Shown: positions 7,382 through 37,407 of the stretch, piece after piece
Position numbering within the stretch: position 1 is the stretch's first letter
Layout: each line of letters begins with the position of its first letter
Assembly (NCBI GenBank): GCA_963674705.1
Contig: OY771506.1
Location: 1,472,001-1,536,000, forward strand
DNA from: Phycisphaeraceae bacterium
GTDB lineage: Bacteria > Planctomycetota > Phycisphaerae > Phycisphaerales > Phycisphaeraceae
Direction: 5' to 3'
Length of the DNA stretch: 64,000 nucleotides
Translations under genes and position numbers: made by a program
The notes under the pieces: generated by a model
Told to the model about the DNA's origin: nothing
Databases searched by the model: none
Seen by the model: only the letters and a program-made list of their open reading frames with translations

Positions 7382-7458
<77 letters not shown>

Positions 7459-28217: not shown

Positions 28218-29534
28218 CTACAGACCAGATTTTTCCTGGAGCTTCTGAATGCGTTCCTGTTCACGCTTACGAGATATCTCAGGATCGGTGTTGATTTCGA
28301 GGTAGAGTTGGCCGCCGTTGTTGTACATGGTTTCGACGTCGGCGGAGAAAATCTCCTCGCGTGCCTGCTCGCTTTCGCGGCTGATGAAAAGCTTGGGAGC
28401 TTCACGATACTTGCTGAGCAATTGCACGAAGCTGTTGGCCTCGCTCTTGATGCGTTCTACGGTTTCGGTGCGGTAGGTGTTGGCTTCGCTGATCAGCCGT
28501 GCCGCTTCGCCGCCGATCTGTGCCCCACCGTACTCAGCGGGCAGGCGCAGTTCATCAAACGCGGTGTCGATGACCTGCGCGAGCTGCTCTGCCTTATCAG
28601 TTTGGCCGGCGGACTGGGCCAGTTCGTATTCCTGCACCAGCTTGAACAACGCTTCGTGCGCCTCGCCCGCGGTCTCGTTCAGCAGGCTTGTCCGTTCCTG
28701 ACGCGCGGCGCTGATCTTCTGACCACGTTCACTCTCGGCATTGGTGACCAGGGCGTATGCCGGCTTCACGACCAGCGGCGCTTCGTTACCCTTGATATTC
28801 ACCTTCGTGATTTTGATGCCGGAGTCCATACTGTCGAGGACTTCCTGCATCCGATTTGCGATCTTCGCCCGGCTCAATTGCGACTTAATAAAATCATCGG
28901 CGCTGATCTGAGCTGTCGCGTAGACGACCCCCTGCTCCGCGACGCTTTCAACCAGTTTGTTGGCCTGTGAGAAGTCGTTGGGTTTGGGCATGCCAACGTT
29001 TTCGATGAACGCGATCACGTCGTGGATTTCGTAATACACCTCAAAACGACCGTGCACGATGTTGGCGTCACTGGTGATTAGCGAACCGTCTTTTTCCGGA
29101 TTCAATGGCCCGCCACGCGGGTTACCGGCGCTGTCGGTTGCATTGGTCTCATACCAGAAGGCTTTGTAGATACGGATGTCCTGCTCGGTGGTCGGGACCG
29201 CGATCTTTTCTTCGACCGGGTAGGGCCAACCCAGGTGCCAGCCTTGTTCGTAAACCTTGCCTTCGCCTGCGCCCACTATCTCACCGAACCGAAGCCGGAC
29301 CACTTTCTGCTGAGGTTCAACGATGAAGATGCCCGTGCACAGATACGCGATAAGCATCAGGAACATGATCGTTTTAAGGATCATGAAGCTGACGCGCATG
29401 GCGTCGGCCAGCGACTTCTGCGCGGGGTCCGAAGGCTCGAACGGCTCATGGTCATGATGGTGGTGGTGGTGGTGGCCGTGCTCACAGCCATCATCATGCG
29501 AGTGGATGAACGGGTTTTTTATTTTCTCAGCCAT
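28218..29534 (-). CDS. HflK-like SPFH protein with His-rich N-terminus
   Basis: HSHDDGCEHGHHHHHHHDH, one TM, LRFG..., ITSDANIV, coiled-coil, YREAP. Confidence 0.8.
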   Translation of the reverse strand: MAEKIKNPFIHSHDDGCEHGHHHHHHHDHEPFEPSDPAQKSLADAMRVSFMILKTIMFLMLIAYLCTGIFIVEPQQKVVRLRFGEIVGAGEGKVYEQGWHLGWPYPVEEKIAVPTTEQDIRIYKAFWYETNATDSAGNPRGGPLNPEKDGSLITSDANIVHGRFEVYYEIHDVIAFIENVGMPKPNDFSQANKLVESVAEQGVVYATAQISADDFIKSQLSRAKIANRMQEVLDSMDSGIKITKVNIKGNEAPLVVKPAYALVTNAESERGQKISAARQERTSLLNETAGEAHEALFKLVQEYELAQSAGQTDKAEQLAQVIDTAFDELRLPAEYGGAQIGGEAARLISEANTYRTETVERIKSEANSFVQLLSKYREAPKLFISRESEQAREEIFSADVETMYNNGGQLYLEINTDPEISRKREQERIQKLQEKSGL

Positions 29535-29580
29535 AGGTGATGTCTAAGGTCTGGTGTGTCGGGGCTTGTCTGTCTGCACA

Positions 29581-29613
29581 CAACGCCGGTCCTGAGCGAA
29601 GCGAAGGGCCGGG
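29581..29613 (+). repeat. Dispersed REP-like element, copy A
   Basis: CAACGCCGGTCCTGAGCGAAGCGAAGGGCCGGG; near-identical inverted copy at 36495-36527. Confidence 0.75.
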
Positions 29614-29630
29614 TGGTCTGGGGTTTATCT

Positions 29631-30581
29631 TTACTCTCGATTCAAGTCGGTGCTTTCACCGTTAAGCGGGCTCAGGAACCAGAGCTTGTTGGCGTCGAGG
29701 ATGAACGTCGTGTTGTTGGATAGCATTTCCTTGAGCGCATCGATCTGACGCTGGAAGATGGCAAAGTCCTGATCTTCACGGAAGGCGCTGAAGTACTGCG
29801 CGGCTTCGCGGTTACCTTCATCACGGATCGCCTGGGCACGACGCTCGGCAAAGGCGAGGATTCGCTTCTTCGCAGCTTCGGCCTGGGCCTTGATCTTGTT
29901 CGCTTCAGCGTTACCTTCCGAACGCGCCTTCTCGGCAAGCTGCTCACGGGTCTTGGTCATGCGGTCGAAGACCTTCTGCGTTGTCGCTTCAGGCAGAATG
30001 ATCCGGCGGATGCCGACCTGCTCCAGCTTGATGCCGTAGCCCGGCTGGATCGCACTGAGCTTGCCGCGCAGGAAGTCCAGACCCTCTTGCTCTATGTTCT
30101 CAAGCTTGACCTGATCGGGATTGGGATTCACCAACTGATCGAAGCGGTACTTCGAGACCACTTCGTTCAATTCACCCATCATGGAGATCAGTTGATCTTC
30201 CGCTTCCTTCTCGGTTTCAAGCCGCAGGAAGAACGCGTACGGGTCTTCGATACGCCACGCCAGGTACATCTTGACGGTGACCGAATACCCGTCGGCGGTC
30301 TGGATCTCGGTTAGCTGATCTTCCAGCAACTGGATCTTCTTGGAGTAAACGCGGACTTTCTGGATCGGCGTAGGCCATTTGAAGCCGTAACCGGGTTCCA
30401 GGATCAGGCTGCCGGGGTTGTCCGGATCGATGTTGCCGTCGGCGTCACGCTGCGGCTCCACGACCTTGTCCCAAGTGGTTCGGACCGCGACCTGGTCGTA
30501 ACGGACCTGGAACATGACCATGTAGACCAGCAGCACGGTGGCAACAGCCAGAGCTACGAGGAAGATGAGTTTGTTTTTCAT
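29631..30581 (-). CDS. HflC-like SPFH protein
   Basis: N-terminal TM, EPGYGFKWPTPIQ, WRIEDP, GIRRIILPE, VFDRM, RSEG. Confidence 0.85.
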   Translation of the reverse strand: MKNKLIFLVALAVATVLLVYMVMFQVRYDQVAVRTTWDKVVEPQRDADGNIDPDNPGSLILEPGYGFKWPTPIQKVRVYSKKIQLLEDQLTEIQTADGYSVTVKMYLAWRIEDPYAFFLRLETEKEAEDQLISMMGELNEVVSKYRFDQLVNPNPDQVKLENIEQEGLDFLRGKLSAIQPGYGIKLEQVGIRRIILPEATTQKVFDRMTKTREQLAEKARSEGNAEANKIKAQAEAAKKRILAFAERRAQAIRDEGNREAAQYFSAFREDQDFAIFQRQIDALKEMLSNNTTFILDANKLWFLSPLNGESTDLNRE

Positions 30582-30623
30582 TGCAGATGCGTCTCCAACA
30601 ATCGTTGGTGTGTTCTATGGATG

Positions 30624-32792
30624 CTACTTTTGCTGTGCTTCGATCCCCAGGCCCTCGAGGCCGGAGGTGGTGGTTTGAGCATTGATACGGATGATTGGCG
30701 GCAGTTCCTGCTCGCCGACGATGACGAATTTACGACGATCCTTAAGCGTTTCTTTGAGCGTGTTGAGGTATTCCCGGGCCATGTAGTATTTGGGTGCTTG
30801 CTGATACGCGTCATAGCGTGAAGCGGTCCTCATCGCACGAGCTCGTTCGCCCAGAGCGTATTCCCAACGATAAGCGCGGGCCTCATAAATCAACTTCGCC
30901 GCCTCACCACCCGCCTCGTCCAGCAAACGTTCGATCTCGGTCTTTTTCACCAGAACCTGATCCGCGATCTTGTCGGCCTCGGCCTGATCGTAGTTGTCGC
31001 CCAGTCGCATCGCCTCGAGTGATTGCTGCAACGTAACAACCCCCTGGATGGCTTCATCGATCAGTAGCGCCTTTTCCTTGGAGCCCGCGATTTCCGCAAG
31101 CTCCGAGACCGCTACACGCTGCGCCTCCTGGATCATGGTCTGTTTTTCCTGGCGGGCATCGATCTGCTCGTGGAACTTCGCCGCCACATCACCTTCACGC
31201 GGCGGGTGCACCGCGTTCAGACCCACGTAAACGACTTCGATACCGAGATTGAGTCCGTCGGCATCCGCCTGGATCTGCCCCTGCAGCACTTCAGATGCAT
31301 CGATGCGCGCCGTCGTGAGCAACTCATCAATATCATGCGTGGCAAAGTACTGGTTGAATCGGCGTTCAGACAAGGATTCAAGCAACCGAACCGGATGCTT
31401 CGGATCGTCCAACGCCATCTTGCTGTAGTCCAGCAGACCATCTTCCGCGATGCGGTACTTGACGATGCCCAGCCCGCCGGCCAGTTCACCGGCAACGGTT
31501 TCGGTTTGTTGCTGAGCGTTCTGATCGGTCGCGTTGTCGACCAGTTGCGTCGGCGCGGTCACCATGTACTGCTCTTGTTCGCCGGTGTGTTGCGTGGTCC
31601 AGAGGATCGGGACATCTCGGTTGAAGCTATCGGCTGACGAGCCGACATTGATCTCGTGGACGCGAGAGGCGTCGAACTTATATGCCAGACCCAACGGCCA
31701 AGGCATCTTCCAGTGCAGGCCCGGACCGACAACGCTGCTGTCTGTCAGATGCCCCCAGCGTGTGATGACGGCTTTCTGGTGTGGCTCCACCAGCACCGCC
31801 GAACTGAGCAGGAACAGCACGATAATGCCGACAACGATCAACGGCGTGACGGCCTTGGCCAGCAGGCGGTAGAACCAGCTATCCGACACCTCGAAGCCGA
31901 ACTGGTAGTTGATCGCTTCGCCGATGATCTTGCCGAGAGATTCGTAGTGGGTCAGCCAGCCAAGGATGCGGCTGTCGAACGCCGCACGCGGGCGCTGGCC
32001 GGGCCGACGCGGCTGATAGAACCCGAAGATGACCGACAGCAGCATCTCCGTGCCCAGCAGGATCATGATGGTTGGGATCACGATCGCCAGCGCCGGGAAA
32101 AATTCAGCCGCGTTCAGTGCTTGCAGCGATGCGGTGATGATCAGAAGCAGCGTGCCGACAAAGTTACCCATCAGGTAGCTGGCGCCGCCGCGAAGCTGTT
32201 GCCATTCGGTAACCTTGGTCATGCCCGCGACGTAGCGGGAGATCAGGAACGCGGGGAACCCGATGATGACGGCAATGATCGCCACCGCTCCGACGCTGTT
32301 GCCGGTGAACCCGCCACCGGACATCATCATCTTGCCGATGTCCTGGAAGTACCCCCCCGCTTCGATGTCCTGTGCCGTGCGGAAAGCACCCAGGGCTTTG
32401 TTCAGCATGACAAAGCCCATCGCCAGCAGGTAGATACTGACCAATAGGCTGACGATGCTGATGCCGTACTTATAAAGGCGGTCCAGCCGTTTCTGAGCGA
32501 TGTGCAACTGTTGGCCGGCTTCATCGAAGAAGGCCGTTGTCTTGGCGTCCTGGGCAGCGAGCTGCTCGGTTTCCAGGGCCTCGACACGCTCCAGGCGGTG
32601 CTGGTTGTAGACCAGCCAAAGGATGATCCAGATCGGCAGGCCGCCCAGGTAGTACCAGAACAGGGCGTTGATGCCTTCGGCCCCGGCGTACAACCCCGTC
32701 AGCGCAGTCAGGATAGACAGCACCAACTGGGTGATCAGGCCCAGCAACACCGCGTTGCATGCTCTGCGGTAGGTTTCTTGATCGTGACTCAT
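30624..32792 (-). CDS. Polytopic membrane domain fused to an HflK-like SPFH domain
   Basis: Several N-terminal TMs, then VGPGLHWKMPWP, VHPP and YQQAP. Confidence 0.8.
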   Translation of the reverse strand: MSHDQETYRRACNAVLLGLITQLVLSILTALTGLYAGAEGINALFWYYLGGLPIWIILWLVYNQHRLERVEALETEQLAAQDAKTTAFFDEAGQQLHIAQKRLDRLYKYGISIVSLLVSIYLLAMGFVMLNKALGAFRTAQDIEAGGYFQDIGKMMMSGGGFTGNSVGAVAIIAVIIGFPAFLISRYVAGMTKVTEWQQLRGGASYLMGNFVGTLLLIITASLQALNAAEFFPALAIVIPTIMILLGTEMLLSVIFGFYQPRRPGQRPRAAFDSRILGWLTHYESLGKIIGEAINYQFGFEVSDSWFYRLLAKAVTPLIVVGIIVLFLLSSAVLVEPHQKAVITRWGHLTDSSVVGPGLHWKMPWPLGLAYKFDASRVHEINVGSSADSFNRDVPILWTTQHTGEQEQYMVTAPTQLVDNATDQNAQQQTETVAGELAGGLGIVKYRIAEDGLLDYSKMALDDPKHPVRLLESLSERRFNQYFATHDIDELLTTARIDASEVLQGQIQADADGLNLGIEVVYVGLNAVHPPREGDVAAKFHEQIDARQEKQTMIQEAQRVAVSELAEIAGSKEKALLIDEAIQGVVTLQQSLEAMRLGDNYDQAEADKIADQVLVKKTEIERLLDEAGGEAAKLIYEARAYRWEYALGERARAMRTASRYDAYQQAPKYYMAREYLNTLKETLKDRRKFVIVGEQELPPIIRINAQTTTSGLEGLGIEAQQK

Positions 32793-32958
32793 CTCAAATC
32801 CTCTAGTGGCGGGTCGGGTTGATCCGACGACCACACGTGGGTTAGCGTACAGTACTCACAGTATCATTTGTGCCGATATCAAACCCCCGAGGCCTAACGG
32901 CCGTATGATAAGGACCGTTAGCCCGGCCCGTTTCAAACCCCCGGATACGACGACTGTT

Positions 32959-34026
32959 ATGTTTCAACAACTCGTGAACATCGCACACAACACGTTCACC
33001 GAATCGATCCGTCAGCCGATCTTCGTGGTCCTGGTCCTGCTCGGTTCGCTGGCGCTCGTCCTGAACCCGCAGCTTGCCGCCTACACCATGGAGGACGACA
33101 ACAAGCTGCTGATCGACATGGGCCTGAGCATGATCGCCTGCACGTGCCTGTTTCTGGCGGCGTTCACAGCCACGGGCGTGTTTTCCAATGAAATCGAAAA
33201 CAAGACCGTCCTGACCGTGATCAGTAAACCGGTCAGCCGCCCGCTTTTTGTCGTCGGTAAATATCTGGGGATCGCAACGGCGATCGCCGTGGCGTTCTTC
33301 CTGCTCAGCATCGTATTCGCGTTGACGATCCGGCATCGTGTGATGTCGACCGCCAGCGACCACTTCGATATACCCGTACTCGTGTTCGGGATCGGTGGCG
33401 CAGTGATCGCGATTATCTTCGCTACTTCCGCCAACTACCTCTATAACAAAGTTTTCAGTTCGACACTGACGGTCGCGCTGCTTCTGACGCAGACCATCGC
33501 GTTCTGCCTGGTGCTGGTGATCAATAAGAAGTGGGGTATCCAGTCGCCATTGACCGAGTTCACCTCGCATGACGGGGAACTGACGCAGGTCGTGATCGGG
33601 CTGGGGCTGGTCTTCCAGGCGATGCTGGTCCTGACCGGCATTGCCGTAGCAGCTTCCACCCGTCTGGGACAGGTGATGACGCTGCTGATCTGCATCGGCA
33701 TTTCTTTCTTGGGACTCGGCAGTAACTCCCTGAGTCAGTCGGTCAACGCCCAATTGTCCATACCGGTCGAAACCGGTTACTACCAGAGCCTGATGGCGAT
33801 CTTCCAGGCGGACTTGGCCTTCTACCAGAAGCTGGTGTACGCGTTCGCCAAGTTGCTCTACATGCTCGTGCCGAACCTTCAGTTCTTCTGGCCCGCCGAC
33901 GCCATCACGCAGGACACACCGATCACGCTTGGGCTGTTCGGCCTGGTCTCGGCCTACGCCGGGCTTCAGATCGTAGCCATCCTCTCCATCGCTGTGGCTC
34001 TGTTCCAGAACCGCGAGGTTGGTTAA
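32959..34026 (+). CDS. ABC-2-type permease
   Basis: NTFTESIRQP, EIENKTVLTVISKPVSR...VGKYLG, LVPNLQFFW, FQNREVG. Confidence 0.85.
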   Translation: MFQQLVNIAHNTFTESIRQPIFVVLVLLGSLALVLNPQLAAYTMEDDNKLLIDMGLSMIACTCLFLAAFTATGVFSNEIENKTVLTVISKPVSRPLFVVGKYLGIATAIAVAFFLLSIVFALTIRHRVMSTASDHFDIPVLVFGIGGAVIAIIFATSANYLYNKVFSSTLTVALLLTQTIAFCLVLVINKKWGIQSPLTEFTSHDGELTQVVIGLGLVFQAMLVLTGIAVAASTRLGQVMTLLICIGISFLGLGSNSLSQSVNAQLSIPVETGYYQSLMAIFQADLAFYQKLVYAFAKLLYMLVPNLQFFWPADAITQDTPITLGLFGLVSAYAGLQIVAILSIAVALFQNREVG

Positions 34027-34159
34027 TTCACTCGACCTCTGTCGAGTCGTCGTGATGGATGGGCGGATCAATGACACGGCTGATACGGTTATGGGTTTCG
34101 TTTCGTAGAGGGTGAGTTTTCGGGGTTGATTCAAACATCTCGGCAGCGAGTGCATGAGC

Positions 34160-36172
34160 TTAGGCCATGGCAGGCGTTGCCTGCCCGGATTCTGTGTCCT
34201 GCTCCTGCTGAGGTTTGGCTTGCGAGGCTTGCAGGGCCTGGTGTTCCTGCTGCTCGATTTCCTCGCCGCTGCGGACCAGACGCGCCGAGTTAAACACCAC
34301 GATCAGCGAACTGACCACGTGCAGCAAGGCCGCGACCACCGGCGGAATGTGACCCGTGCCGGCGACGATGAGGAACAGCAGGATGAAGCCGCCGCCGATC
34401 GCCATATTCTGCTTGATCACCGCGCTGGTCTGACGCGAGAGCCGGACCAGGAACGGGATACGGTTCAGGTTGTTGTTCATCAGGGCGATGCTCGCCGAGT
34501 GGATCGCCACGTCACTGCCGGCAGCACCCATCGCGATCGAGATGTCGCCGGCCTTCAGCGCCGGAGCATCGTTCACGCCGTCGCCGATCACCGCAACACG
34601 GTGGCCCGCACTCTTCAAGCCATCCACCATCTCCAGCTTCTGGTGCGGCAGCACCTCGGCCTGGTATTCGGTGTGCATCTGGCCTGCTACTCGCTTGGCA
34701 ACCGATTCGCGGTCACCCGTGACAATGATCAAACGCTTCAGGCCCATCTCACGCAGGTCGTCCATCGCGCCTGCTGCCTGCGGACGGGTATTGTCCGCCA
34801 GACCTAACCAGCCCAGGAATTGGCCGTTACGTATCACGAACAGGGTCGAGAGCCCCTCGGCCTCCGGATCGTTGATGGCCTGCTCGATCTGACCTCGAAT
34901 CTGATCGTCATGTACTTCCTGCGTAATCCAGTTACCCCGGCCGACCAGGATGGTCTGGTTGTCGAACGATGCACGGACACCCTTGCCGGCCTCTTCGTGG
35001 AATTCGTTCGGATCACTGAGGTTCAGCCTCGCTTTACGGGCGACTTCAAACACGGCCCGCGCCACCGGGTGACGTGAACGCTGCTCAGCCGACGCAGCCG
35101 CCAGCAGCAGGTCCGCACCCTCGACGCCCTCGGCCGGGCTCAGACGCGTCACTTCCAACTGCCCCGTCGTCAGCGTGCCGGTCTTATCGAAGACCATCGC
35201 GGTCAGGTTACGTGCGCCTTCCAAATCAGTGACGGACTTGACCAGCACGCCTAATCGAGCGGCAGCGGAGATCGCCGCGACCATCGCGGTCGGCGTGGCA
35301 AGGATCAGCGGGCAAGGACAGGCAATCACCAGCATGGAGATCGCCGCGACCGCAGCCGCTTCCGGATTGGTCTGCGAGGTGTAGAACCAGACGATGAACA
35401 CGATCATCACGACGGTTGGCGTGTACCAGCCGGCATAACGGTCGATCATTCGCATCAAGGGAATCTTGGTCCGCTCGGCCTCGATGATCATGTCTTTGAC
35501 CCGGCCCAGCGTTGTGTCTTCGCCGGCCTTGGTGACCTTGATATCCATCGCACCGGTCAGGTTGATCGTGCCGCCGAAGACCTCATCGCCTTCGATCTTG
35601 TCAGCAGGGAGCGATTCACCGGTGATGTTCGCCTGGTTGACGGTGGAATGGCCCGATTCGACAAGGCCGTCAGCGGGGATGTTGTCGCCCGGCCGGACGC
35701 GGACGATATCGCCGGGGATCAGGTCCTTGGCTTCGACCTCGGTCTCCTGGCCGTTTTCCAGCTTGTGGGCTTTGGTTGGGGTGATGCGGACGAGGGCCTC
35801 GATATCACGCTCAGCACCCAGGGCTGTGCGGTTTTCGATCAGCACTGAAATGATCATGAAGAACGCAATGAAGCCGGCTTCGATGTACCAGCCCTTGGCG
35901 AACGCGGCGAGCACCGCCAGTGCCACCAACTCGTTCATGTGCATGTGTCCCTGCCAAAGGTCCTTCAAGGCCACCCAGACAAGCGGGGTGCCCAGCAGGA
36001 CCGTAGCGATACCGGCAAGCAGGTCCGAGGGGTCGTTGACATCAAAGGTAAGTTTGGCGATCAGCGCGCACATCAGCAACGTGCCGCCAAGCAGCGTCGC
36101 GATGATCTCCAGGCTTACCCGCCCGGTTTTGGATTTCAGGGCAAGGTCTTCTGCCAGATAGTCGTGGGCCAT
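34160..36172 (-). CDS. Heavy-metal P1B-type ATPase without N-terminal metal-binding domain
   Basis: TGES, IACPC, DKTGTLT, SRHP, GDGVNDAP. Confidence 0.93.
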   Translation of the reverse strand: MAHDYLAEDLALKSKTGRVSLEIIATLLGGTLLMCALIAKLTFDVNDPSDLLAGIATVLLGTPLVWVALKDLWQGHMHMNELVALAVLAAFAKGWYIEAGFIAFFMIISVLIENRTALGAERDIEALVRITPTKAHKLENGQETEVEAKDLIPGDIVRVRPGDNIPADGLVESGHSTVNQANITGESLPADKIEGDEVFGGTINLTGAMDIKVTKAGEDTTLGRVKDMIIEAERTKIPLMRMIDRYAGWYTPTVVMIVFIVWFYTSQTNPEAAAVAAISMLVIACPCPLILATPTAMVAAISAAARLGVLVKSVTDLEGARNLTAMVFDKTGTLTTGQLEVTRLSPAEGVEGADLLLAAASAEQRSRHPVARAVFEVARKARLNLSDPNEFHEEAGKGVRASFDNQTILVGRGNWITQEVHDDQIRGQIEQAINDPEAEGLSTLFVIRNGQFLGWLGLADNTRPQAAGAMDDLREMGLKRLIIVTGDRESVAKRVAGQMHTEYQAEVLPHQKLEMVDGLKSAGHRVAVIGDGVNDAPALKAGDISIAMGAAGSDVAIHSASIALMNNNLNRIPFLVRLSRQTSAVIKQNMAIGGGFILLFLIVAGTGHIPPVVAALLHVVSSLIVVFNSARLVRSGEEIEQQEHQALQASQAKPQQEQDTESGQATPAMA

Positions 36173-36494
36173 GGGTCGGTTGTTCCTTGGAAGTCCGATA
36201 ACCCAAGTTCGTTTAAAACAGGCGAACAGCGGGTGTTAAACAATACGTCGGGTATGCTAGAAAGTTCGCGCCAAACGTTCCAATCCTCAAATCCAGACCG
36301 ATGCAACGCGACTCATTCTCGGGACAACAGATAATTACATAACTCTAGGTAGATCAAGAGACAAAAGCGTTCAGGCCGGGAATCAGCCTATTACTTTCAG
36401 GTGATTGATATTAAAAATGATTGAAGAAATACCACGGCGGTCAGATCCTGCCACTCTCCTGCTCTCCTGTTCTACCTTCGCCTGCTCTGAACGG

Positions 36495-36527
36495 CCCGTC
36501 CCTTCGCTGCGCTCAGGACCGGCGTTG
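36495..36527 (-). repeat. Dispersed REP-like element, copy B
   Basis: Reverse complement CAACGCCGGTCCTGAGCGCAGCGAAGGGACGGG matches 29581-29613 with two mismatches. Confidence 0.75.
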
Positions 36528-36538
36528 GGGGGAAGGAA

Positions 36539-36570
36539 AGCCATTAGCCTTTAGCGATTAGCCATTAGCA
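36539..36570 (+). repeat. Short heptamer tandem repeat (AGC-N2-TT)
   Basis: AGCCATT-AGCCTTT-AGCGATT-AGCCATT-AGC. Confidence 0.7.
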
Positions 36571-36597
36571 TCGCTACACCCCACCCACCCCGCGCGT

Positions 36598-36647
36598 AAA
36601 AATCCCGCAGCCAGATCCGCTATAGATATGCCGGTCTGACTGCGGGA
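36598..36647 (-). terminator. Strong minus-strand intrinsic terminator
   Basis: TCCCGCAGTCAGA/TCTGGCTGCGGGA 13-bp stem (its G-U pair works only on minus) followed by T5. Confidence 0.85.
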
Positions 36648-36652
36648 CCACT

Positions 36653-37198
36653 TGGAGGACTGTTGTGGAATGCGTCGGCTTCTGGTTTTTCAGGTGACGC
36701 TTCCCTCGGAATGGGGTGGGGCTTACATCTTACCCTATTATTGTCGCAGTGGTTGGCGTTTCTGCCGTTTCCCACAAGTTTTTAACTTGTTTCTGCTTGT
36801 TTCTTAATCTCAACCATCCACGTTGCACCGTTTTTTGGCTGATGTACGGGGTGGTTTGTCTGGTTCCTTGTCGCTTGCGTCGACTTCTTCTTCGGCAAGC
36901 CATATATCCGAGTGCGGTGCTCAGCGTTACGCCATACTTCGCATTCGATCTGGCGTCTGCCTTGCCTTCTTCACCGAACCTGTACTGAGCCACGTATGCC
37001 CGCATCACATCACTCGCGGTCTACTAGGCCCTACTACGCCAGGCCACGGTTCCGGTGTTCGCGCTGACACGCCGAGAAACGCAGTTTCCTGGCCCGCCCG
37101 TCGGAGTACGCCTCTGACGCCCTTCTTATATGCAAGCGCTGTGCCAATATCCAAAACAGCCCTCTGGACCAAATATCCCGTATCCAACCGCTTCTCCA
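36653..37198 (-). ncRNA. Candidate large structured non-coding RNA (~550 nt, family unassigned)
   Basis: At least eight consecutive stem-loops with minus-strand G-U bias, A-rich linkers, partial 5'/3' end pairing, an adjacent terminator and no credible ORF. Confidence 0.65.
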
Positions 37199-37407
37199 TG
37201 CTTATGTAATAATCAGTGGCCACTTGCTCGCGCATTTAATAGGCGGATTGGCTAACTGCGTTAAGATCTCATGAGTTAGGATTGGGCAAGACAGGCAAAA
37301 TACGAACCCACTTCGCGGTAGCATGGTAAGAGAACAACACGCGCGATGACTCATTCACATTCATACGTTTAACAAACCTGTAGCGACCCTTCATGGAGAC
37401 TACTGTC

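Follow-up and report, generated by a model that had tools for sequence, protein, structure and literature searches.

Introduction

GlnZ, an sRNA made from the 3'UTR of glnA in enterobacteria, is described as belonging to a nitrogen-limitation transcript that combines a protein-coding part with a conserved 3'UTR seed (PMC9731577), and SgrS/SgrT as an RNA that varies in size and in its 5' coding part, is best conserved in its 3' pairing region and covers with its seed the ribosome-binding site in the mRNA of a transporter (PMC2760806). The locus that we discuss here resembles both in these respects. However, the published accounts make GlnZ Hfq-dependent, derived from a glutamine synthetase mRNA and a repressor of sucA that acts far upstream of the start (PMC9731577), and SgrS an Hfq-dependent RNA of ~200 nt that encodes the 43-aa SgrT and answers sugar-phosphate stress (PMC2760806), whereas in our case Hfq was not found, the host ORF is that of a variable small protein, the predicted target is the ribosome-binding site of amt, the promoter is of the sigma-54 type, the length is 466-621 nt, the ORFs are of three unalignable types and any contact between protein and transporter is conjecture. 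Given that neither Hfq nor any sequence relationship to these RNAs was found, the unit is a member of neither family.

Other systems share single aspects of the design. NfeR1 of Sinorhizobium meliloti is reported as nitrogen-responsive, Hfq-independent and equipped with anti-Shine-Dalgarno (anti-SD) seeds that feed back on nitrogen genes, but as far as these accounts go it has three loop seeds, is activated by LsrB and repressed by NtrC, has no sigma-54 promoter and is non-coding (PMC10746234; bioRxiv 10.1101/2025.11.14.688489); the main text of the preprint does not name amtB (bioRxiv 10.1101/2025.11.14.688489). CJnc230/FlmE of Campylobacter jejuni is processed from an RpoN-dependent mRNA, as the present RNA may be, and carries a single-stranded anti-SD motif, but it is described within the flagellar regulon, with RNase III/Y processing and a conserved host gene, flgE (PMC11187230). 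NrsZ of Pseudomonas aeruginosa is likewise an NtrC/RpoN-induced processed RNA, although it is reported to activate rhlA and to consist of repeated modules (PMC4253122), and s-SodF of Streptomyces is a fragment of a 3'UTR that pairs as far as a ribosome-binding site through a perfect 19-nt match (PMC3919588), compared with 8-10 nt for our seed. Finally, sP36 of Methanosarcina mazei is a nitrogen-response small protein acting on AmtB (PMC10714827), and by analogy with this precedent the ORF of our locus might act on AmtB as well.

Literature searches of openly readable papers and preprint main texts found no base-pairing sRNA reported in Planctomycetota including Phycisphaerae, no earlier report of the RNA described here and no sRNA shown to repress amtB. 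The unit is confined to a single genus and would fall into a known class of sRNA; on our best reading of the sequences it would yield an sRNA, either 3'UTR-derived or dual-function, by which amtB is damped. If this is true, Planctomycetota would have a regulator that works by base pairing, and ammonium uptake would be held back by an RNA under the control of the transporter's own activator. The result also supplies the nitrogen-regulon box of the genus, and an unchanging seed that follows differing ORFs offers a natural case in which the origin of 3'UTR and dual-function sRNAs becomes testable.

A sigma-54 transcription unit in one genus

The unit lies on the minus strand of the window (the whole 64,000-nucleotide stretch of Phycisphaeraceae DNA that was analysed), from ~37120 to 36596, and is carried by six of the 11 genomes of one Phycisphaeraceae genus. 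Its outline and upstream features are as follows.

36596..37120, minus strand: whole predicted transcript, ~525 nt; promoter-to-terminator distance 466-621 nt across the six homologues
37100..37118, minus strand: 5'-terminal hairpin of 6-8 bp, differing in sequence and predicted at the same place in 5/6 homologues
37131..37146, minus strand: sigma-54 (-24/-12) promoter TGGCAC-N5-TTGCA, hexamer and TTGCA invariant in 6/6
37201..37215, minus strand: second, AT-rich conserved box between activator box and promoter, at -68 to -70 in 4/6
37229..37245, minus strand: activator box (NtrC-like), 98-100 nt upstream of the sigma-54 site in 6/6

When the neighbouring metallo-hydrolase gene was traced through the genus, the same two flanking genes were found in 11/11 genomes, with a long insert between them in six and a short gap without the unit in five. 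Each of the six inserts holds a TGGCAC-N5-TTGCA sigma-54 site, an ORF starting with MRA or MKA, the 12-mer GTCCTCCAAGTG and a terminator, and the interior aligns only inside two close pairs, apart from short patches that L043 shares with L042 and L047. The homologue L039/L005 is 91% identical to the window unit, and the comparison counts no change in the 63 nt of seed and terminator, 20 in the 276 nt of the ORF and 14 in the 183 nt of the UTRs; L040 is the homologue whose predicted fold lacks the 5'-terminal hairpin. Beyond the genus the trail fades quickly: searched as DNA, the unit matched four of 201 genomes from the order, all in one genus, a profile of the two-transmembrane (2-TM) protein encoded by some homologues matched in 3/144 genomes of the family, and an RNA model of the unit matched in 13/144, strongly only in the six that bear it. 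Counts from a seed search allowing two mismatches were no higher than the control, metagenome scans for the unit gave no matches, ARAGORN reported nothing within it, and 31 of the 36 exact 18-mer matches in a contig collection lacked an upstream sigma-54 site. Four identical 18-mer-containing repeat copies (L068, L069, L072, L077) belong to one Bdellovibrionales MAG and have neither promoter nor terminator. Contigs from public runs confirmed the DNA of the locus; a dispersed repeat adjoining the terminator (window 36455-36584), whose two overlapping parts have 134 and 163 BLAST matches in the window genome, breaks assemblies in those runs.

The promoter was read against the -24/-12 consensus of sigma-54, and transcription would start near 37120. 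The initial annotation had placed the 5' end at 37198, closed by a UGGAG/CUCCA pairing, and had read an AT-rich stretch as a -10 element; that end lies upstream of the conserved sigma-54 promoter at 37146-37131, UGGAG is not conserved in the relatives, the stretch is instead the second box, and a sigma-70 scan found 0 sites. The window genome encodes RpoN, 13 strong sigma-54 activator-domain matches, RNase E/G and three CsrA genes, and Hfq (PF17209) was not found in this 96.6%-complete genome, the control being matched in 5/14. We regard the locus as very probably a sigma-54-driven transcription unit, judging from its sequence. A flagellar link was dropped, as flagellins occur in 5/5 unit-less and 5/5 unit-bearing genomes.

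The activator box is common to amtB, glutamine synthetase III (GSIII) and a Gcw_chp-family gene, and in the window it agrees at 15 of 17 bases with the box that precedes the amtB sigma-54 promoter in the same genome. The NtrC consensus is TGCAC-N7-GTGCA, for which our literature search found no paper, and we take the activator box to resemble it. With a matrix built from nine amtB boxes alone the window box scores 15.6 bits, a value reached by 15 sites genome-wide, and among the genome's 141 sigma-54-like sites only 3 are accompanied by such a box, namely those of amtB, the Gcw_chp gene and the present locus. After removal of the boxes of genomes G000 and G173 from the matrix the window box drops to 8.5 bits, a level reached by 8/141 sites, and the best site in each homologue is unchanged (6/6). 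The box stands upstream of GSIII in all four genomes with upstream DNA and upstream of amt2 in most, and a strict box-plus-promoter pattern matched one of 301 genomes, in front of GSIII in another genus. In Escherichia coli and Pseudomonas putida, glnA, glnB/K and amtB are described as members of the NtrC regulon (PMC12799797). None of the 7/13 activators scanned with TIGR01818 (NtrC) passes its cut-off of 558.6 bits, the best reaching 451. Membership of the unit in the nitrogen regulon thus seems quite probable; this link rests on sequence, from which we infer the activator and the signal. Another regulon member is the Gcw_chp-family gene L259 (G000 C1 3643256-3644377), with its sigma-54 promoter and nitrogen box.

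Several elements around the unit deserve mention in their own right. Parts of both boxes recur in inverted orientation downstream of the terminator (window 36327-36342 and 36381-36393), with no promoter seen beside them, and a strongly conserved element on the minus strand (36230-36274), present upstream of the P1B-ATPase gene in 11/11 genomes of the genus, could be either a promoter or an operator. The heavy-metal P1B-ATPase itself stands in line with a Band-7/SPFH gene, an ABC ATPase and two more genes that look HflK/HflC-like by eye (28218-36172, minus strand).

An invariant seed near the 3' end

The six homologues also share the end of the predicted transcript.

36661..36672, minus strand: A/U-containing linker 5' of the seed, A/U at 5-8 of 12 bases in the six homologues
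36649..36660, minus strand: seed GUCCUCCAAGUG, an anti-Shine-Dalgarno core plus an AAGUG tail, 12/12 bases identical in 6/6
36596..36648, minus strand: intrinsic terminator, a 13-bp conserved stem plus U-run; z -6.5, 96% of cells paired

In all six the seed follows the ORF stop by 52-113 nt and directly precedes the intrinsic terminator, whose stem shows one compensatory pair and 10 of 13 pairs that never vary. The AAGUG tail is absent from the 16S end of the window genome. Predicted folds leave the first nine seed bases more than 0.85 unpaired in a 3' fragment, compared with just 0.34-0.65 in the full-length RNA, and the linker is a possible cleavage region. We consider it probable that the seed acts in trans. 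Read on the plus strand, the seed gives a perfect GGAGGA before a 10-codon ORF (36665-36697, region 36633-36665); as a ribosome-binding site this was rejected, the ORF being kept in G000 and G173 only.

The ammonium-transporter match

The seed is complementary to the ribosome-binding sites of both ammonium-transporter paralogues, amt1 and amt2, the full seed-complementary site at amt being CACUUGGAG. A search of the seed complement before start codons pointed to an ammonium transporter prior to the discovery of the box. The screen of ribosome-binding sites gave 86 matches in five seed-bearing genomes and 34 in four seed-less ones, of which ~65 and ~32 were examined and 81 start-site ORFs kept (21 in G000, one in G173). 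Only one orthologue group, amt2, was matched in 5/5 of the seed-bearing genomes searched, and behind it came a large family of prepilin-like paralogues, amt1 and four groups found in two genomes each. Predicted duplex energies are -12.9 to -14.2 for amt1 in six seed-bearing genomes, against -8.9 to -12.4 in four seed-less ones, and -14.2 to -17.7 for amt2 in five seed-bearing genomes, against -10.8 and -13.1 in two seed-less ones. The four seed-less genomes form one clade with 100% support in a midpoint-rooted tree without outgroup, so the weaker pairing there counts as a single loss event, and in one of them, G251, amt1 still pairs at -12.4.

With the anti-SD core held fixed, the real tail ranked 1/1024 on amt1 sites, which had been chosen independently of any seed match, and 1/1024 on amt2 sites, a rank that is circular because amt2 was found by the seed; for seven sets of control genes the tail came out at ranks 159-964, and the seed-less genomes gave 22 and 69. 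The window genome has amt1 and lacks amt2, and its amt1 shows an 8-nt match at -13.5 kcal/mol, rank 89/960 among GGAG-containing sites, which 40 genes share. Envelope proteins are not enriched among such seed-matched sites (24/40 vs 446/920, p 0.20). No seed match was found at a credible ribosome-binding site of P-II (with a search pattern that left out the P-II paralogue adjoining amt1), of both glutamine synthetases, of the 13 activators or of the Gcw_chp gene. On balance we think it somewhat more likely than not that amt is a target of the seed.

Two further leads were set aside: a perfect 12-nt complement in the window genome (G000 84254) was taken as chance, lying by eye inside a signal-peptide coding stretch, and an isoform switch from amt2 to amt1 was ruled out, since amt2 has the box too. 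The amt1 of G253 (C26) appears in four pieces in different frames (L181-L184), through frameshifts or assembly errors.

The reading frame and its exchange

The initial annotation had stated that the interval contains no credible ORF, which proved wrong.

36730..37005, minus strand: 91-codon ORF, basic (20 K+R), no TM segment; pN/pS 0.24, p 0.009 against L039

The frame 37005-36730 is open, and its comparison with L039 shows 5, 2 and 13 changes at codon positions 1, 2 and 3 and a single indel of 3 nt. Its pS of 0.18 falls inside the 0.10-0.21 of neighbouring genes and its pN of 0.044 above their 0.001-0.017. The Shine-Dalgarno sequence is weak and the selection test rests on 20 substitutions in one genome pair; translation of the window ORF nevertheless strikes us as probable from the substitution pattern. 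An antisense frame sharing third positions does nearly as well (0.32, p 0.054), and the strand assignment therefore rests on promoter and terminator.

The slot that this ORF occupies is filled by a 55-aa ORF in L040 and by a 2-TM protein of 99-105 aa in L042, L043 and L047, with two hydrophobic segments and a pN/pS of 0.24 on 67 changes. The 2-TM family, with 10 close and five further relatives and at least 19 sequences in all, has invariant residues and no family name, and it is clearly coding in the relatives. The window protein has no homologue among ~5.8 billion proteins and no Pfam or NCBIfam match, a protein atlas gave 0.84 at best and no lead, and homology to the 2-TM family was not detected (E 0.1-0.16; shuffle p 0.13); its relation to the 55-aa ORF of L040 is not firm (p 0.04). 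All six ORFs start with MRA or MKA at 114-151 nt past the predicted transcription start, and the window ORF and L043 share VKNxW 13 residues before the stop, features that suggest decay from a common gene and are not significant. A complex prediction for Amt2 with the 2-TM protein scored 0.00, which speaks neither for nor against contact.

Proposed mechanism and rival explanations

We give slightly better than even odds to the following reading, in which a sigma-54 transcript of nitrogen limitation carries a small-protein ORF and a 3' end that covers amt ribosome-binding sites as a brake on ammonium uptake. Under nitrogen limitation an NtrC-type activator would bind the box at 37245-37229 and fire the sigma-54 promoter, as at amtB. 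The ~525-nt RNA would be translated into a small, fast-evolving protein, and its 3' end would expose GUCCUCCAAGUG, either in the whole RNA or as a released fragment of ~65-80 nt. Given the complementarity seen at amt and its conservation, the seed would pair over the ribosome-binding sites of amt mRNA and lower translation. With amtB and its brake both switched on, one activator would therefore have two outputs, and the resulting incoherent feed-forward loop would cap transporter synthesis, apparently without Hfq.

The main competitor, which we consider unlikely though worth keeping in mind, is an ordinary small-protein mRNA of the nitrogen regulon, in which the 12-mer is a cis signal for protein binding, stability or termination and the amt match arises by coincidence or is just one among numerous weak anti-SD contacts. 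It draws on the selection on the ORF in two pairs (pN/pS 0.24 each), on the at least 19 sequences of the 2-TM family with their invariant residues, on the 11-mer before terminators at hsp20 and a gene of G146 together with the C/U-rich stretches that precede other terminators, and on a terminator stem conserved in sequence, with 10/13 pairs invariant; however, it leaves unexplained the 1/1024 rank of the tail on amt1, as well as why promoter box and best target should both point to ammonium transport, and it is the seed that is conserved and not the protein. The ORF of the window lineage could be a decaying relic or an incidental frame and the RNA in effect the non-coding precursor of a 3' sRNA, as the lack of a TM segment and of homologues, the weak Shine-Dalgarno sequence, the mere 55 aa in L040 and a pN of 0.044 beside 0.001-0.017 in the neighbours would have it; this we think improbable, since 13 of 20 changes fall on third positions, the indel is in frame, pS is like that of the neighbours and the six ORFs share their start and its placing. 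Very improbable, too, is an mRNA resembling a type I toxin-antitoxin system, in which the 3' anti-SD would pair back onto the ribosome-binding site of the same transcript, or an RNA that titrates CsrA: a small hydrophobic protein in 3/6 homologues and the three CsrA genes speak for these ideas, but a UUGGAGG-type site lies upstream of the ORF in 0/6, GGA is below expectation in 6/6 (3-11 seen, 8-13 expected) and the window protein is hydrophilic.

The initial annotation had proposed a large structured non-coding RNA resembling OLE, ROOL or GOLLD. Its size, terminator and several possible hairpins fit, and all eight minus-strand stems and the terminator are indeed present where they had been placed; in L039 no pair is missing from the three stems that lie 5' of the ORF, and five of eight are fully paired overall. 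However, three of the five ORF-internal stems lose pairs at 91% identity (GCUUGC from 6 to 2, ACGCCA from 6 to 4, ACAAGUU from 7 to 6), and the region 36598-37198 folds no better than its shuffles (z -1.79 on the minus strand, -1.76 on the plus strand). The terminator alone has z -6.5 and the body without it -0.69, with 14/60 shuffles folding equally well, so that the structure signal of the 601-nt region is due to the terminator. The interior is unalignable inside one genus, and Rfam, against which the window unit and eight related loci were run, gave no match at gathering score, only two chance microRNA matches (E 0.11 and 1.7) and, elsewhere in the window, a tRNA-Pro, the TGG tRNA gene at 7385-7458. 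What the homologues conserve is a promoter, a reading frame and a 3' module of 63 nt rather than a chain of base pairs; this and the shuffle-like folding are two of the outcomes that the initial annotation had itself named as refuting its proposal. A large structured RNA has become the least credible of the readings, very improbable indeed. What holds from the earlier proposal is the idea of an independent RNA on the minus strand, ~520-550 nt in length, that has its own terminator and matches no Rfam family; its supposed nature does not, and the RNA function likely sits in the last ~65 nt of the unit.

Other copies of the seed element

The seed is not confined to the nitrogen unit. An 11-mer of it stands directly before the terminator at the hsp20 3' end in two of the six genomes (G107 and G253), where the hsp20 sigma-54 promoters have an upstream palindrome different from the box of the unit, and a secreted-protein gene of G146, the one unit-less genome retaining the full amt2 match, also ends in 11-mer and terminator. 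The chance expectation for such sites is ~0.01-0.04 in 11 genomes, and the copies may reflect either reuse of one module or convergence. At that position the remaining four copies of hsp20 carry another C/U-rich stretch. Origin of the unit by hsp20 duplication was rejected, as just the first 33 nt and a seed region of 16-19 nt align.

One could go further and picture seed plus terminator as a portable module placed on unrelated 3' ends within one genus (nitrogen unit, hsp20, secreted-protein gene), by which varied stresses would damp amt translation without Hfq, with the ORF as exchangeable cargo and the 2-TM protein shutting the transporter as SgrT does PtsG; we offer this as a doubtful speculation from the sequences.

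The sigma-54 hsp20 subfamily (L209-L214) occurs in exactly the six unit-bearing genomes and has a conserved CTGCC-N5-GGCAG-type palindrome upstream. In G000, the same 14-nt C/U-rich stretch precedes the terminators of hsp20 and of a gene that by eye looks HtpX-like (C1 5104650-5104664 and 234308-234322), possibly a second anti-SD 3' element, in heat-shock mRNAs.
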